From Erythrobacter sp. (GTDB taxonomy: Bacteria > Pseudomonadota > Alphaproteobacteria > Sphingomonadales > Sphingomonadaceae): a DNA stretch of 64,000 nt. A program made the translations under genes and the position numbers. The stretch covers positions 539,230 through 603,229 of the forward strand of contig NZ_JASJAP010000001.1 of NCBI RefSeq assembly GCF_030066995.1, in the 5' to 3' direction. The notes below the pieces were generated by a model. It was not told the origin of the DNA. It saw only the letters and a list, made by a program, of their open reading frames with translations, and made no database searches. Below, in pieces: positions 6,075 to 63,944 of this stretch (position 1 is its first letter; every line of letters starts with the position of its first letter).

Positions 6075-6353
6075 TTAGCGCGGAATATCCACGTAATCGA
6101 GCTTCATCATCGCCTCGATCTGAGCGCCGGCAAACCTCTCGGGCACATTTTGTGTCTTCAGCGCCCAGGCCATGATATCGACGTCGTCCTCGGCGAGCAG
6201 GTCTTCAAACCAATCGAGCTCCCTTTCGCCCCAGGTCGAGGCGTAGGCGTCGAAAAAACCGCCGATCATGTAGTCGGCCTCGCGCGTGCCGCGGTGCCAG
6301 GCGCGGAACTTGGCGCGCGCCAACCGCTCTTCGAAAGTGGGCATATCGGTCAT
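6075..6353 (-). CDS. sdhE: succinate dehydrogenase flavinylation/assembly factor SdhE (DUF339)
   Basis: About 92 aa: MTDMPTFEERLARAKFRAWHRGTREADYMIGGFFD...DWFEDLL, which matches the SdhE/SDHAF2 family. It is divergent from recG. Confidence 0.65.
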   Translation of the reverse strand: MTDMPTFEERLARAKFRAWHRGTREADYMIGGFFDAYASTWGERELDWFEDLLAEDDVDIMAWALKTQNVPERFAGAQIEAMMKLDYVDIPR

Positions 6354-10870: not shown

Positions 10871-12246
10871 GCTGCCCTTTCGACCGGCATGGGCGTGGTC
10901 GATGCAAGGATTTCTTCGGTCATGCGCCGGATGTTGACCTTCGCTTTGAGCCGCGTTCCCAACAGCGCCATGCCCGAGACCTTGCGCTGCACGAACAGCG
11001 TCTCGATCGGCGGGAAGGCCCAGGTGTCCTTGTCCTGCGCGATGGCAAAGCCCTCTTCGCGCAGCAGGTAGACAAATCCGCGATCGGCAAAGTCGAACGG
11101 TTTGTCCTCGCGCATCTGGTCGATGACGATATCGATCATCTTGTTGACGCTTTGAGGGTGCTTTTCCGCCACGATCGGCATCATGAAGCCCGCTTCGATT
11201 GTCGCCTCGCGCACTTCGTCACGATTGCCCTCAAGTCCGGCCTTGAGCATGCCCCGGTACCCGTTGGAGACCGCCGGATCGACCTCGCGGCAGGCCCCGA
11301 AATCGAGCAGGATGAGCTCGCCGGTCGCCGGGCGATAGCGGAAGTTGGCAAAGTTGGGATCGGTCTGCATCACGCCGAAGTCGAACAACTCGCGGCTGAC
11401 GAGCTCCAGCAGGTTGCCGAAGATTTCGTCACGCCGCTCGGCGGGCTCATCCTCCAGCCTTTCGATCGGAACGCCTTCTTCAAAGCTCATCGCGAGGATC
11501 GAGCCGCGCGTGAGGTCTTCGTGCAGCTGCGGCACGACAAATCCGGGCGTGTCGGCCAGTTGCTCTCGATAAAGCTTCATCTGCGCGCCTTCGCGCTGAT
11601 AGTCCGCCTCTTCATGAAGCTGGCGCTTGGCCGCATCCAGCAGCTTGTCCATTTCCAGTTCGGGCGGCGCAAAGCCCGCAACCTTGAGCAGGGTCATGAC
11701 GTTGTCGACATCGCTGTCGATGCTCTTTGCGACACCGGGATACTGCACCTTGATCGCCAATTCCTGGCCATCGCGGGTCATCGCCTTGTGCACTTGGCCA
11801 ATGCTGGCAGCGGCGATGGGGCGGGGGTTGAACCACTTGAACCGCTTGCGCCAGTCGCTGCCCCATTCCTCCCTCAGCACCATATCGAGTTGCTTGGTGG
11901 GCATGAAATTGGCCTGATCGCGCAGGCGAGCCAGGATGTCGGAGAGTTCGGGCGGCAGAAAATCACCGGAATCGAGGCTGATCATCTGCCCCATCTTCAT
12001 CGCCGCGCCGCGCAGGTGCGAGAGCTTGTCGGTCATCCGACGAACATTGCCGGGGGTGAGGATCAGGTCGCGCGTGGAGATGCGCTCCCCACTGGTCAGA
12101 CGCCGCGCGCCTTCGGCGGCCATGCCCCCCGCCACGCCGCCCACCAGGCGGCCGAACGTGCCGAAGCGCGCCAGGCGCCCCGATGGCACGGCGCGCTCGC
12201 GCGATGCGTCGCCGGGGCCGAAGGTGTCATCCTTGTCGTGAGCCAC
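10867..12246 (-). CDS. ABC1/UbiB-family atypical kinase (AarF domain)
   Basis: Motifs AAASIGQVH, LAIKVQYPG, QTDPNFANF and LLDFG match the UbiB/ABC1 kinase-like fold. Confidence 0.8.
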   Translation of the reverse strand: MAHDKDDTFGPGDASRERAVPSGRLARFGTFGRLVGGVAGGMAAEGARRLTSGERISTRDLILTPGNVRRMTDKLSHLRGAAMKMGQMISLDSGDFLPPELSDILARLRDQANFMPTKQLDMVLREEWGSDWRKRFKWFNPRPIAAASIGQVHKAMTRDGQELAIKVQYPGVAKSIDSDVDNVMTLLKVAGFAPPELEMDKLLDAAKRQLHEEADYQREGAQMKLYREQLADTPGFVVPQLHEDLTRGSILAMSFEEGVPIERLEDEPAERRDEIFGNLLELVSRELFDFGVMQTDPNFANFRYRPATGELILLDFGACREVDPAVSNGYRGMLKAGLEGNRDEVREATIEAGFMMPIVAEKHPQSVNKMIDIVIDQMREDKPFDFADRGFVYLLREEGFAIAQDKDTWAFPPIETLFVQRKVSGMALLGTRLKAKVNIRRMTEEILASTTPMPVERAA

Positions 12247-22120: not shown

Positions 22121-22197
22121 GCGGGTGTAGCTCAGTTGGTTAGAGTATCGGCCTGTCACGCCGAGGGTCGCGGGTTCGAGTCCCGTCACTCGCGCCA
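22121..22197 (+). tRNA. tRNA-Asp (anticodon GUC)
   Basis: Cloverleaf GCGGGUG...UAGCUCAGUUGGUUAGAGU with anticodon loop CUGUCAC and T-arm GCGGGUUCGAGUCCCGU. The CCA is encoded. Confidence 0.9.
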
Positions 22198-23194: not shown

Positions 23195-23380
23195 AAAAAG
23201 TTGACGGGACCGCCATGGGTCGTTGCCAGTGAAATCCTCTGACGCCTAAACGTCAGGTGGGCGCCATGTATCCAAGCTCCACAGCCGAACTGGTGAGCCC
23301 GGACAGGGACAGCTCCCTTGGATTGCTTATAGCCTCAGGGATATTCGATCGGCTCGTGCCGGGCAGCCCCGCCGAGGCCC
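23195..23380 (-). ncRNA. ssrS: candidate 6S RNA (SsrS), with approximate boundaries
   Basis: This inference rests on the conserved zapA-ssrS-ygfA synteny. It is a roughly 190-nt ORF-free interval on the same strand between zapA and the cyclo-ligase, containing the internal hairpin CUGACG-UUUAGG-CGUCAG. It was not verified by a covariance model. Confidence 0.35.
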
Positions 23381-30701: not shown

Positions 30702-30932
30702 GCGATCGCCCTTCCGCTCATGAAAAACCGCTTTACTTTCAAGAAGCCGCGGCCTAAGGGCCCGCGCGCTGATCTGGCGGTGTTGTAAGCCGCAGGGCGC
30801 GTTATGGCTCTGCCATTTATGTGTTCCCGGATTGGCACTGCCCTTTCACGGCAAGCACTTGGGTCCAGTGCGGTATATCCCGTCTGGGCATGTGCACCTG
30901 GGACGGCGAAAGCCAAGCTGGTTCGAGTCCAG

Positions 30933-31004
30933 CGCTGGATAGCTCAAAGGTAGAGCACCCGACTTCGAATCGGGGTGTTGTGGGTTCAAATCCTACTCCA
31001 CCAA
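30933..31004 (+). tRNA. tRNA-like element (anticodon UCG, Arg-type) with imperfect acceptor stem; possible pseudo-tRNA
   Basis: Canonical U8 A9. D-arm GCUC-AAAGGUA-GAGC. Anticodon arm CCCGA-CUUCGAA-UCGGG. T-arm GUGGG-UUCAAAU-CCUAC. 3' end UCCACCA. The 5' acceptor strand CGCUGGA mispairs with the 3' strand at positions 1-72 and 3-70. It is preceded by a duplicated T-arm/acceptor fragment at 30917-30941. Confidence 0.4.
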
Positions 31005-31427
31005 GCCTTTCCAAGGCTCCTCAAAACTCGGGGAGGCCGGGCAGACAATCCAGCCGCGGCGAGGCGGCGAACCAACGTCTTCCGACCCGCGTTCTGCCAA
31101 ATTGCCAAGGCACCGGTATCGGGCCTAGCGCCTTTGGGGATACCGGCAGATATGGCACCCGATGACGCGGTGTCCACCGGCGCAGATCCTTTAGGATGTG
31201 TGGACGCGGATGCAGCGGGAACCGGGGCCTGATCTGCCTCAACCGAAGGCCCGGCGTGATAGCGGGGATGTGTCTCCCGGCCGAACCACTTTCCGGTGTT
31301 TCAAGTGTGCGACGCTACGGCTTCGGGAGGTTTTCAGAAAAACTGGTTGCAAGTGTAACGAATCACGTCTACCCGCGCGCTCCCTCTGGCGGGATGGTCC
31401 CGCAGGAGCGAGTACAGGAGACGCAAG

Positions 31428-32573
31428 ATGAAGACTTTCATTATTGCCGAAAACCAGCGCGGTCTCCTGGTCAAGGATGGCCGCCTCGTTCAGGTCCTTG
31501 GACCCGGACGTCACTTCTACTGGCTGTGGAACAGCCGCCGGATGAGCTGCGATATCGTGGCTGCGACCGGCGTGTGCGCCTCGCCGCTGGTAGACGGTGT
31601 CGAGAAGCGCCACCCCGAACTCGCGGAGGCGAATTTCGAAATCGTCGCGCCGGTCCAGGGCGAAGTGGCGATTGTGCGGACCGATGGTCGGGCGACCCAG
31701 ATTGTGCGCGGCGGCGACGTCGTGCGGGTCTGGAAGGTGCTCGACGCGATCTCGGTCGACGTGATCGACGTTGAGGCCGAGCCGAAGCTGTCCAAGCGCC
31801 TGTTGAACGAACTGCGTCCGGCTTCGGTTGTGCGCAGCGAGGCTAGCACCACGATCAAACTGGTGGAGGTCAGCGAAGCTGAAACGGCCATCGTGCTGTT
31901 CGACGGTGAGCTTTACGAGACGGTTGGCCCGGGTCGCTACGGCTACTGGCAGGTCGGTCGTGTGGTGAATGCCAAGGCGCTGGACACGCGTCCGGTGCCG
32001 CTGGAAGTGACGGCCCAGGAAATCCTGACGAAGGACCGTGTCAGCATCCGTGTGACGCTGACCAGCTTCGTCAAGGTAACCGACGCCGTGGTCGCCGCTA
32101 TGGCAACGCCCGACTATCAGGCGCACGTCTACAAGCTGGTCCAGTTCGCAGTCCGTGAGGCTGTCGCGGGCCGGACGCTCGACGAGCTTCTGAACGACCG
32201 GGTCAAGGTTGACGCCGAGATCGTCGGTGAAGTCCGCCGTCAGGTGGAAGGCACTGGTGTCGAAGTGACCGGCCTTGCCATCAAGGACGTGATCCTTCCG
32301 GGTGAGATGCGCGAGCTGATCAATCGGGTGGTCGAAGCGGAAAAGGTCGCGCAAGCGAACCTGATCCGCCGGCGTGAAGAGACGGCGGCAACCCGCAGCC
32401 TGCTCAACACGGCGAAACTGATGGCGGACAATCCGGTTCTGATGCGTCTGAAGGAGCTCGAAGCGCTTGAGCGTGTGACCGACAAGATCGGCCACATCGA
32501 GGTCAAGACCGGGTCGGGCGAGGGCCTTGAGGTGCTCACTCAGCAGCTGGTGAAGATCGCGGATCGCGACTGA
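31428..32573 (+). CDS. SPFH / band-7 (stomatin-prohibitin-flotillin-HflC/K) domain protein, with no TM segment
   Basis: The C-terminal two-thirds is a typical SPFH domain with a coiled-coil tail (ILTKDRVSIRVTLTSFVKV...VEVTGLAIKDVILPGEMR...AEKVAQANL). The N-terminal region is a partial repeat of the SPFH N-lobe (LVQVLGPGRHFYW). Confidence 0.65.
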   Translation: MKTFIIAENQRGLLVKDGRLVQVLGPGRHFYWLWNSRRMSCDIVAATGVCASPLVDGVEKRHPELAEANFEIVAPVQGEVAIVRTDGRATQIVRGGDVVRVWKVLDAISVDVIDVEAEPKLSKRLLNELRPASVVRSEASTTIKLVEVSEAETAIVLFDGELYETVGPGRYGYWQVGRVVNAKALDTRPVPLEVTAQEILTKDRVSIRVTLTSFVKVTDAVVAAMATPDYQAHVYKLVQFAVREAVAGRTLDELLNDRVKVDAEIVGEVRRQVEGTGVEVTGLAIKDVILPGEMRELINRVVEAEKVAQANLIRRREETAATRSLLNTAKLMADNPVLMRLKELEALERVTDKIGHIEVKTGSGEGLEVLTQQLVKIADRD

Positions 32574-62493: not shown

Positions 62494-63944
62494 TGACGGC
62501 TATGCAGCACGTCAGCCTTGGCGCTCATTATGTTGTTCACTTGCCTACGCCTGATGATTTCGCCTTCTGGCGCGAACGTGCGCGGCAGCTGATCCAATGT
62601 GATGTGCCGCCGGACCGGGTGAGTTGGGTGGAGCCAGGCGGGACGGGTGATCTGTTCGCGCAGGAAGGTCCAAGCCGGGGCGAGCGGCGCTTGCCGCTGC
62701 CGGAGAAGAGTGCACGGCAGGTGCGCGCGTCCAAGCGTTTCATGAAGCTGGCGCGCAACGCGGCCCTTCATTCCGACCCCGAACGCTTTGGCTTGCTCTA
62801 CCGGGTGCTCTGGCGGCTTCAGTCCAAACCGCGCTGCATGGAGGACAAGGCCGACGCGGATGTGCGCCGCGTCGAAGAGCTCGACAAATCGGTGCGCCGC
62901 GACAGCCACAAGATGCACGCCTTTGTGCGCTTTCGCGAAGTCACCGATGAAACAGGAGCGGAGCATTACGTCGCCTGGTTCGAGCCCGATCACCATATAG
63001 TGCGCGCCAACGCCGGGTTCTTCATGCGTCGTTTTGCCAATATGAACTGGTCGATCCTGACCCCGCGCGGCTGTTTGCATTGGGATGGGACAACGATGCG
63101 CGAAAGCGGGCCTGCGCGCCGCGAGGACGCGCCCGGTGGCGATCCTGTCGAGGCGCTGTGGAAGTCCTATTATTCCTCGATCTTCAATCCCGCGCGGCTG
63201 AAGGTCGGCGCGATGCTGGCGGAAATGCCCAAGAAATACTGGAAGAATATGCCCGAGTCCGAGCTTATTCCCGAACTCATCGCCGGAGCGCAAGCGCGCG
63301 AAGCGGGCATGGTGGCGGCCGGAGCGCGCGAAGATCGGAAACTGCCCAGCAGTGTGGACGCCATCGCGCAAGGAATTGGTGCCTGCCGCGATTGCCCCAT
63401 CGCCGAATGCAGCACGCGGGCGGTTATGGGGGAGGGCGCTTTGGGAGCGCGGCTGATGATCGTGGGCGAACAACCAGGCGATCAAGAGGACGAGCAGGGC
63501 AAACCCTTCGTGGGGCCAGCGGGGCAATTGCTCGACGAATACCTCACAAAGGTCGGGATCGCGCGCTCGCAGGCCTACGTCACCAACGCGGTCAAGCACT
63601 TCAAATTCACCTGGAAAGGCAAGCGCCGTCTCCACCAGTCGCCCACCGCCAAGGAGATCGATGCCTGTCGCTGGTGGCTCGAAGCCGAACGCTCCGTCGT
63701 CAAGCCGCGCGTTGTGCTGGCGCTTGGCGCGAGCGCGGCGCGTGGTTTACTGGGCAAGACCGTCAGCATCGCCCGCGCGCGGGGCACGCCGATGCCGTTG
63801 GAGGATGGATCGGAGCTGTGGGTGACGGCGCATCCCTCTTACCTGCTACGGCTTGATGGTGAGGCGCGTGCAGAGCAGGCGGCGAAGTTTGAAAGTGATC
63901 TGGAGGCGGTGCGAGCGCGGCTGACACAAATCGCCGGCTGCTAG
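62493..63944 (+). CDS. DUF4130 (TIGR03915) fused to uracil-DNA-glycosylase family-4-like domain (TIGR03914)
   Basis: The C-terminal motif GEGALGARLMIVGEQPGDQEDEQGKPFVGPAGQLLD matches UDG family 4 motif A/B. The N-terminal half is the DUF4130 partner domain. Its start overlaps the rSAM stop. Confidence 0.8.
   Translation: MTAMQHVSLGAHYVVHLPTPDDFAFWRERARQLIQCDVPPDRVSWVEPGGTGDLFAQEGPSRGERRLPLPEKSARQVRASKRFMKLARNAALHSDPERFGLLYRVLWRLQSKPRCMEDKADADVRRVEELDKSVRRDSHKMHAFVRFREVTDETGAEHYVAWFEPDHHIVRANAGFFMRRFANMNWSILTPRGCLHWDGTTMRESGPARREDAPGGDPVEALWKSYYSSIFNPARLKVGAMLAEMPKKYWKNMPESELIPELIAGAQAREAGMVAAGAREDRKLPSSVDAIAQGIGACRDCPIAECSTRAVMGEGALGARLMIVGEQPGDQEDEQGKPFVGPAGQLLDEYLTKVGIARSQAYVTNAVKHFKFTWKGKRRLHQSPTAKEIDACRWWLEAERSVVKPRVVLALGASAARGLLGKTVSIARARGTPMPLEDGSELWVTAHPSYLLRLDGEARAEQAAKFESDLEAVRARLTQIAGC

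Follow-up and report, generated by a model that had tools for sequence, protein, structure and literature searches.

A tRNA-like element at positions 30933-31004 of a 64-kb stretch of Erythrobacter sp. DNA (hereafter, the window) lies upstream of a gene for an SPFH/Band-7 protein and appears to be the core of a considerably larger molecule. The region from about 30765 to 31292 is, with good probability, one structured noncoding RNA of about 520 nt, the cognate RNA of the downstream SPFH/Band-7 protein. As read from its sequence, this RNA would be composed, from 5′ to 3′, of a 5′ hairpin domain, a reduced tRNA-like module (module 1), a second tRNA-like module (module 2, the element itself), a 3′ domain of about 260 nt, and a U-run. 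The element is probably a member of the b7a-tRNA class, to which it is matched by the published description.

An earlier note on the window had described a degenerate tRNA-like element with a duplicated T-arm, followed by about 420 nt of noncoding DNA, and had offered three origins for it: an att-site scar, a tRNA-derived small RNA locus, or the remnant of a mobile element. The small RNA locus comes closest to the truth. The parts of the proposed RNA and its protein partner, all on the + strand, are as follows.

30765-30832, +: 5′ domain of the RNA, conserved in the 20-sequence and other alignments
30833-30916, +: variable remnant of module 1, which aligns with complete cloverleaves of relatives
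30917-30933, +: T-arm of module 1 (GCTGG-TTCGAGT-CCAGC), conserved in 19 Sphingomonadales-type sequences
30933-31004, +: tRNA-like module 2, a b7a-tRNA-type element, found by ARAGORN, the Rfam tRNA model, and a covariance model built here (R1)
31004-31018, +: hairpin AGCC-TTTCCAA-GGCT directly 3′ of module 2, with four of four pairs changed on both sides and 92% of cells paired
31030-31292, +: structured 3′ domain of about 260 nt, from RNAalifold and shuffle tests on the alignment
31428-32573, +: SPFH/Band-7 (slipin-like) gene, 381 aa

Conservation of the interval upstream of the SPFH gene

The analysis is a comparison of sequences, in which the loci of relatives are labelled L001, L002, and so on. 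The letters of the interval are identical in an independent assembly (Logan contig L001). The gap before the SPFH gene measures 726 nt in the window and 713-726 nt in relatives within Erythrobacter, of which Erythrobacter sp. JK5 (CP073577, locus L002) is a cultured one. Sphingomonas loci and L012, whose gene context is unrelated, have gaps of 630-830 nt, even with a different upstream gene. The gaps of relatives are alignable end to end with that of the window, and the expansion that a comparison of synteny might have revealed is not present. In a first comparison set, consisting of loci that encode SPFH homologues at 62-80% identity, a tRNA-like element occupies the same place in each close relative, and its anticodon triplet reads GAU, GUU, UAU, UGU, or GCU, not UCG. 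The relatives thus carry the same interval, as the earlier note had allowed, with a tRNA-like element in it instead of the bona fide tRNA that it had envisaged there.

The RNA is immediately bordered by the SPFH gene and by a gene for a PaaI-type thioesterase. Housekeeping genes (pgk, fba) make up the flanks, and in Alphaproteobacteria the RNA-SPFH pair stands alone among genes of this kind.

A breadth scan of an SPFH alignment against one genome per species yielded 80 loci at 36-78% identity. These are distributed over Sphingomonadales, Rhizobiales, Rhodobacterales, Hyphomonadaceae, Maricaulis, Steroidobacteraceae, Competibacteraceae, Xanthomonadales, Methylococcaceae, Thiodiazotropha, and one Bryobacteraceae genome (Acidobacterium). 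The upstream element was detected with nhmmer, ARAGORN, and the covariance model R1, which was built from 39 copies. Of 87 non-duplicate loci, 84 have a tRNA-like element ahead of the SPFH gene on the same strand, the exceptions being two contig ends and one weak match. Across the 84 loci, the distance from the end of the element to the SPFH start codon is 242-595 nt (median 420 nt); the window element ends 424 nt upstream of the Band_7 protein gene.

The association was also examined in the reverse direction by searching metagenome contigs with the DNA pattern of module 2 and classifying only matches with enough downstream sequence. In about 35 matches, an SPFH homologue follows on the same strand after 237-694 nt. 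A second kind, 19 matches, has no SPFH gene, and 18 of these are canonical tRNAs with 7/7 acceptor pairs, about half with an encoded CCA and mostly with AT-rich flanks. The remaining one (L095) has 6/7 acceptor pairs and an aberrant anticodon region. Viral contigs searched for relatives of the SPFH protein gave none.

tRNA-like module 2

With ARAGORN, positions 30933-31004 (+) are read as a tRNA-Arg(tcg). The Rfam tRNA model (RF00005) scores 60 bits at the same coordinates, its alignment showing non-pairs at 1:72 and 3:70. The cloverleaf, the UCG anticodon, and the C1:A72 and C3:C70 mismatches that had been described from the letters of the sequence are real. The module scores 73.4 bits against model R1. 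Its acceptor helix is limited to 4 bp (30936-30939 with 30997-31000), TCG at 30965-30967 is the triplet of the anticodon loop, and no CCA follows its 3′ end.

The arms of the module are well maintained. Pairing in the D, anticodon, and T stems is complete (100%) in 39 orthologous copies, and the covariation score is 0.427, compared to 0.127 for shuffled alignments and at most 0.10 with slid partners. The acceptor stem follows a different pattern, the number of the 84 orthologues that pair at positions 1 to 7 being 22, 47, 57, 76, 82, 83, and 84, respectively. The innermost pair, 7:66, alternates among A:U, U:A, and G:C, and an NCCA tail is found in 13 of the 84 elements. Because the outer acceptor pairs are often unpaired across the 84 orthologues, the two mismatches are a family-defining trait and not decay, and the epithet "degenerate" does not apply. 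The view that the element is not a functional decoding tRNA does hold, given the 4-bp acceptor, the missing CCA, and the variable triplets.

Among 75 seven-nucleotide anticodon loops there are 29 distinct triplets, with U33, R37, and the stem retained. In Sphingomonadales the loop is fairly constant (CUGNUAA), with position 35 the most variable and position 34 mostly G, otherwise U. The D-loop of the window module is AAAGGUA.

In several Gammaproteobacteria, arrays of up to about 15 canonical tRNA genes are found upstream of the RNA-SPFH(-RtcB) module. Almost all of the array tRNAs have 7/7 acceptor stems, and nearly all have an encoded CCA. The arrays are located at the following positions.

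L053, 1-1655: canonical tRNA array
L061, 166-1716: canonical tRNA array
L046, 14-629: canonical tRNA array
L036, 1534-1797: canonical tRNA array
L072, 1413-2335: canonical tRNA array

The extra T-arm and tRNA-like module 1

Upstream of module 2, the extra T-arm is what is left of another tRNA-like module, which other lineages have in complete form. ARAGORN reports two tRNAs side by side in L012, and the extra T-arm of the window aligns with the T-arm of the first. A complete first cloverleaf, ending 1-2 nt before the second, is present in the deep-branching loci L012, L018, L020, L023, and L024, as well as in Rhizobiales, Rhodobacterales, and Xanthomonadales. In Erythrobacter and Sphingomonas, module 1 has no acceptor stem, and in the window its D/anticodon region is replaced by a variable hairpin region.

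This remnant stretch (30833-30916) has a degenerate D/anticodon-arm region and a long variable arm whose end is the mini-hairpin GGCGAAAGCC (30905-30914); folded alone, it gives a long irregular hairpin. It aligns with the complete cloverleaf of the five deep-branching loci and, in L002, L005, L010, L014, and L016, with a Leu-like anticodon arm (loop UUNAGGU). The T-arm itself is better preserved. In the 19 sequences its stem covaries at pairs 2 (AU/CG/UA/GC) and 3 (CG/UA/AU), and its loop reads UUC[GA]ANU in 16.

For module 1, statistics were taken from 18 copies that were detected as separate covariance-model matches. The acceptor is mostly 6-7 bp long (13 of 18), and half of the copies harbor G3:U70, the alanine identity pair (9/18). 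A CCA lies at or within a few nt of the 3′ end in 9/18, six of them with an exact N73-CCA tail. The anticodon loops are often abnormal, with 5, 6, or 8 nt. In Rhizobium and Mesorhizobium loci, module 1 combines G3:U70 with A73 and CCA.

The fragment had previously been taken for a T-arm plus a 3′ acceptor piece without a matching 5′ half. The T-arm at 30917-30933 stands. The supposed acceptor piece, GCUGGAUA, is instead the 5′ acceptor strand plus U8-A9 of the downstream module 2, counted twice, and the upstream module itself lacks an acceptor strand. The 10-bp palindrome said to join the fragment to the cloverleaf, CCAGCGCTGG, is indeed in the sequence at 30929-30938. The two T-arms differ in sequence (GCTGGTTCGAGTCCAGC vs GTGGGTTCAAATCCTAC) and so are not the product of a duplication. 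The 25-mer that covers the fragment is unique in the window (0 expected by chance). The T-loop motif GGTTCRANYCC occurs six times in the window (0.58 expected), two of these being chance matches inside long open reading frames (ORFs) at 11824-11834 (-) and 62977-62987 (+), with the strings GGTTCAACCCC and GGTTCGAGCCC.

The 5′ and 3′ domains

The 5′ domain contains two hairpins, GGCGG/CCGC (30776-30793) and ATGGC-TCT-GCCAT (30804-30816), and the conserved strings GGGCGCG and GTGTTCC. The second hairpin covaries, with UGGC/GCCA in the window and CGGC/GCCG elsewhere. Matches of nhmmer to this domain extend to Rhizobiales, Rhodobacterales, and Dyella, and related strings are present in all three groups.

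The 3′ domain is closed by a long-range helix between GGCCGG (31035-31040) and CCGGCC (31277-31282), which is followed by TTT (31290-31292) and shows compensatory changes in L021 and L023. Across 31030-31287 in 19 sequences, 52 pairs are predicted by RNAalifold, and compensatory changes are seen at 36. The proportion of paired cells is 92.5% (76.5% shuffled), and the covariation score is 0.497, compared to 0.205 for shuffled alignments, none of 500 shuffles attaining it, and about 0.1 with slid partners. An equivalent closed domain is found in the RtcB-linked Xanthomonadales group, with 35 pairs, 88.9% of cells paired vs 73.3%, and 24 pairs with compensatory changes vs 13. The U-run gives way to a stretch that varies in length and sequence, with insertions in L010, L016, L018, L023, and L025, and this in turn to a conserved promoter-like box and the SPFH ribosome-binding site.

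The 423 nt at 31005-31427 contain no ORF conserved in relatives, and several loci have no ORF of at least 50 aa on either strand; a hidden protein gene in this interval was accordingly rejected. Thus, it was correct that about 420 nt downstream of the element carry no credible ORF, but they are not merely noncoding DNA, as a conserved structured RNA domain lies inside them. On the opposite strand, a 418-aa ORF (31239-32495, -) runs antisense to the SPFH gene and reaches into the 3′ domain. It is almost certainly a spurious ORF of high-GC DNA that could mislead gene callers, and in L011 such an antisense gene call covers part of the RNA.

Rfam holds no family for the RNA itself, only the tRNA model matching any part of it. 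No Rfam family matches the 5′ or 3′ domain at E ≤10 in the window, or at E ≤1 or 0.5 in 13 relatives. T-box-like intramolecular pairing of a specifier with the anticodon was considered and rejected, the best aligned site being complementary in 47% of cases with G-U allowed. A transfer-messenger RNA, including the two-piece alphaproteobacterial form, was suggested by the T-arm followed by ACCA in L002 and rejected, as there is neither an acceptor strand nor a tag ORF; ARAGORN reports none, and Rfam reports none at permissive E-values. Of note, the Sphingomonas metagenome-assembled genome L017 has a deletion (2545-2928) of module 1 and the 5′ part of module 2 and retains the 5′ and 3′ domains; this may be a natural variant or an assembly error.

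Putative promoters and transcript limits

The sequence upstream of the 5′ domain and the sequence before the SPFH gene each harbor a pair of promoter-like boxes.

30732-30760, +: putative promoter of the RNA gene, with -35-like TTTACT (30732-30737) and -10-like CCTAAG (30753-30758)
31347-31373, +: putative promoter of the SPFH gene, with TTGCAA (31347-31352) and CGTCTACC (31366-31373)

The aligned boxes of the former across Sphingomonadales loci are TTGACA-like (CTTTACA or CTGGACA) and CCTAAG/CTATAA/GCCTAGG. At the latter, TTGCA..N..CTAACC/GTCTAG is conserved in Sphingomonadales alignments and resembles the Caulobacter-type sigma-70 consensus. These boxes, together with the closing helix and the U-run, suggest a separate RNA gene of about 520 nt.

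Two further elements are found near the SPFH start in other lineages. In the Sphingomonas-type loci L010, L014, L016, L018, and L025, a near-perfect palindrome, TATATGCTGCACTGCAGCAAAATAAT, is located about 100-130 nt upstream of the SPFH start, immediately before the putative SPFH promoter. It has the appearance of an operator bound by a dimeric regulator and is absent from the Erythrobacter window. In Rhizobiales, Rhodobacterales, and a second Sphingomonadales subfamily (L045, L081, L083, L049, L066, L060, L076, L040, and L074), a mini-ORF of 2-4 codons is found about 30-60 nt before the SPFH start. Examples are M-S-stop, M-T-stop, M-R-stop, and M-R-R-R-stop, each with AAGGAG as a strong Shine-Dalgarno sequence. 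Nothing equivalent is present in the window.

The SPFH/Band-7 protein and its linkage to RtcB

The SPFH protein of the window is 100% identical to that of an Erythrobacter sp. metagenome-assembled genome. Its Band_7 domain spans residues 147-318 (Pfam E=3e-28), and residues 5-42 match the first ~35-40 positions of the same profile. An AlphaFold2 model (mean confidence score, pLDDT, 80.8) predicts N-terminal beta-rich repeats, the SPFH domain, and a long helix. By sequence reading alone, no hydrophobic N-terminal segment is evident. In a Foldseek search, the major vault protein (MVP) is aligned over ~410-430 columns with an E-value of ~2e-10, and Pfam gives no Vault-repeat match in the protein. 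A PADLOC search of the protein returned no match; a phage or mobile origin of the SPFH module was rejected on this result and the absence of relatives in viral contigs.

Clustering of neighboring ORFs across the 80 loci identifies RtcB as the one recurrent partner, the remainder being lineage-specific synteny. The distance from the SPFH stop codon to the start of rtcB is ~60-150 nt in L039, L041-L044, L050, L051, L070, L079, L080, L090, and L092. The taxa with this arrangement are Granulosicoccaceae, Steroidobacteraceae, Dyella, and Stenotrophomonas, and many metagenome loci show it as well. In L079 (Dyella marensis), a SymR antitoxin-like match (6234-6306, +; 51.5 bits, E=6.5e-7, under the gathering score of 61) lies ~850 nt downstream of rtcB, and a SymE/SymR-type RNA-cleaving toxin system may be located beside the repair module there.

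Proposed function and alternative explanations

The RNA would bind an oligomeric SPFH scaffold, in parallel to the binding of Y RNA by Ro60 in the rsr-yrlA-rtcBA operon. As a tRNA mimic, it would bring RtcB-like tRNA-handling enzymes to damaged tRNAs or shield tRNAs from anticodon nucleases. The truncated acceptor would hold module 2 inside the larger RNA, precluding its release by RNase P or RNase Z and its charging. With no rtcB in the window, the ligase of this genome would have to work in trans. On the basis of the Ro60-Y RNA analogy and the linkage to RtcB, the most likely mode of action is that of an RNA that binds the SPFH oligomer and serves, with its tRNA shape, as a cofactor or decoy when tRNAs are repaired or quality-controlled. 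A more far-reaching proposal, put forward as a long shot, is that the published b7a-tRNA is only the most recognizable piece of a larger RNA of ~450-520 nt, made up of the 5′ domain, two tandem tRNA mimics, and the 3′ domain. Together with an apparently soluble SPFH protein laid out like a miniature MVP, this RNA might form a ribonucleoprotein cage of the vault or Ro/Y type that repairs tRNAs or controls their quality, and RNase P processing and aminoacylation of one of its ends are conceivable in that case.

Several points weigh against the assignment of a free cognate RNA with a repair function. The RNA and the SPFH gene always share a strand, with the RNA first, which leaves room for a cis-acting leader role. 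A tblastn search finds no rtcB within the window, and the role in RNA repair is extrapolated from Gammaproteobacteria to Alphaproteobacteria. The b7a-tRNA identity is drawn from the description in a citing paper. The promoter, terminator, and transcript ends of the RNA are likewise read from sequence, and a consensus scan reports no promoter at either of the two places and no terminator at the proposed 3′ end.

The leader role would make the whole interval a cis-acting 5′ leader of the SPFH mRNA, in which the modules act as processing or sensing signals, for example as points where RNase P/Z enters or a tRNA-binding protein attaches. The constant strand and the spacing of 242-595 nt to the SPFH start are in line with it, as is the scan, which detects neither a terminator nor a promoter of consensus type in the stretch separating the RNA from the SPFH gene, and the mini-ORF with its strong Shine-Dalgarno sequence before the SPFH gene in Rhizobiales and Rhodobacterales suggests leader-type control. 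However, in both Sphingomonadales and Xanthomonadales the conserved structure ends in a long-range closing helix and a U-run, beyond which come the variable stretch and a second conserved promoter-like box. A multi-domain structure of ~500 nt with two tRNA mimics also far exceeds the needs of known leaders, and the parallel with rsr-yrlA-rtcBA, where the Y RNA is free, would argue by analogy for a free RNA. Taken together, a leader is rather unlikely. There is a smaller chance that the modules are decoys for tRNA-cleaving toxins (anticodon nucleases) and that the variety of triplets reflects an arms race. The 29 triplets among 75 loops, with U33, R37, and the stem retained, would fit such a race, and the frequent triplets include GUN, UUU, and NCG, anticodons of the type that colicin E5, PrrC, and colicin D attack. 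There is genetic linkage to RtcB, which repairs such cuts, and canonical tRNA arrays precede the module in some Gammaproteobacteria. The same decoy idea was proposed for YrlA by Hughes et al. 2020, a precedent in its favor. In contrast, the fairly constant Sphingomonadales loop resembles drift more than diversifying selection, neighbor-ORF clustering reveals no consistently linked toxin gene, and the conserved 5′ and 3′ domains and the SPFH partner would be left unexplained.

The other origins that had been suggested from the window itself fare poorly. A partial T-arm beside a tRNA-like gene with acceptor mismatches is what a tRNA-derived att-site scar, a mobile-element remnant, or a decaying tRNA pseudogene might leave, and tRNA genes are frequent integration sites. 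Yet the fragment is single-copy in the window with no integrase context, its T-arm is not a duplicate of that of module 2, and the flanks are housekeeping genes. The length and sequence of the interval are conserved across families and classes, end to end and with compensatory changes, and viral contigs contain nothing related; the scar, the mobile remnant, and the pseudogene are therefore all highly improbable. Equally hard to credit is a functional, if unusual, decoding tRNA-Arg(UCG), which would explain the good scores of ARAGORN and the Rfam tRNA model. The 4-bp acceptor is family-wide, there is no CCA, unlike in the neighboring real tRNAs of related loci, and the orthologous element of close relatives reads GAU, GUU, UAU, UGU, GCU, and others. 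In addition, A20 is the main identity element for ArgRS in E. coli, and the D-loop AAAGGUA places U, not A, at position 20 (by inferred numbering). The cognate RNA of the SPFH protein remains the preferred explanation.

Other candidates for a mobile context were also rejected. An island boundary extending from the tRNA-Asp at 22121 is inconsistent with the 3′ ends, which are unrelated, and searches for plasmid or phage homology returned generic tRNA-body matches only. Elsewhere in the window, a 6S/SsrS RNA at 23203-23372 (-) scores 49.2 bits, just over the Rfam gathering score of 46.4, and is unrelated to the finding.

Implications

The tRNA finders and the Rfam tRNA model call the element a tRNA, Arg(UCG) here and Ile, Thr, Lys, Leu, or "Stop" in relatives. 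A false tRNA at this locus is therefore probably present in the annotations, and in the codon and tRNA-repertoire analyses, of many Proteobacteria. The Band-7/tRNA-like pair is among the few predicted bacterial protein-RNA cofactor systems that are wholly without an experimental test. What is added here is that the RNA is large, multi-domain, strongly covarying, and universal for this SPFH family, and that the RNA-SPFH pair persists without adjacent RtcB in the Sphingomonadales core genome. To our knowledge, the novel aspects are the size of the RNA and its multi-domain covarying structure, the second module with its frequent G3:U70 and CCA, the family-wide 4-bp acceptor, and this persistence without adjacent RtcB. 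The coordinates afford constructs for testing SPFH scaffolds as RNA-binding machines, which, if true, would extend the parallel with Ro60-Y RNA and the vault.

Comparison with known systems

The closest known relative is the b7a-tRNA, a tRNA-resembling noncoding RNA predicted beside a Band-7 gene by Burroughs and Aravind 2016, as described in a passage of Wang et al. 2018 (bioRxiv 10.1101/312249). The same passage has it predicted as a cofactor of RtcB-centered RNA-repair systems. Both share the cloverleaf fold and the location of the gene beside Band-7/SPFH, and rtcB is adjacent in many Gammaproteobacteria loci that encode the same protein family. However, no rtcB is near the window RNA, the window element is a unit with a 4-bp acceptor inside an RNA of ~520 nt, and it is accompanied by a second tRNA-like module and a covarying 3′ domain of ~260 nt. 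The original abstract is said to speak of "SPFH/Band-7 modules" and "a novel tRNA-like molecule" as putative scaffolding cofactors, beside Ro/TROVE-Y RNAs.

Canonical tRNAs share with module 2 the D, anticodon, and T arms, the variable loop, U8, A14, G18-G19, and the T-loop consensus. In contrast to them, module 2 has a truncated acceptor and no CCA, its anticodon varies between orthologues, and its position is fixed upstream of one protein gene.

YrlA, a Y RNA, is likewise a tRNA-mimic noncoding RNA encoded beside a ring- or cage-forming protein and RtcB (rsr-yrlBA-rtcBA operon). The Rfam YrlA model (RF02553) matches the window with 20.9 bits (E=0.12) at 30917-30956, the junction of modules 1 and 2, where a T-arm, a short linker, and U8-A9 plus the D-arm follow one another as in YrlA. 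The best score among relatives is that of L049 (30.5 bits, E=0.012), and all YrlA matches (20.9-30.5 bits) are far under the gathering score of 69. The sub-threshold matches at the junction in relatives are the following.

L049, 2509-2604: sub-threshold YrlA match
L002, 4476-4519: sub-threshold YrlA match
L010, 3327-3424: sub-threshold YrlA match
L060, 2493-2547: sub-threshold YrlA match

The junction of the tandem tRNA-like modules thus has the circularly permuted order of YrlA, which hints at an evolutionary link. The differences are that the partner is an SPFH protein and not Ro60/TROVE, that the RNA is four to five times longer, and that it carries whole cloverleaves with anticodon arms.

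A further resemblance is to the vault. MVP contains beta-sheet repeats, followed by an SPFH-like shoulder domain and a long cap helix, and the predicted model of the window protein similarly combines beta repeats, an SPFH domain, and a long helix. MVP occurs with vault RNA, as the SPFH protein occurs with a small structured RNA nearby. This likeness, which draws on a predicted model, is a lead and a resemblance only.

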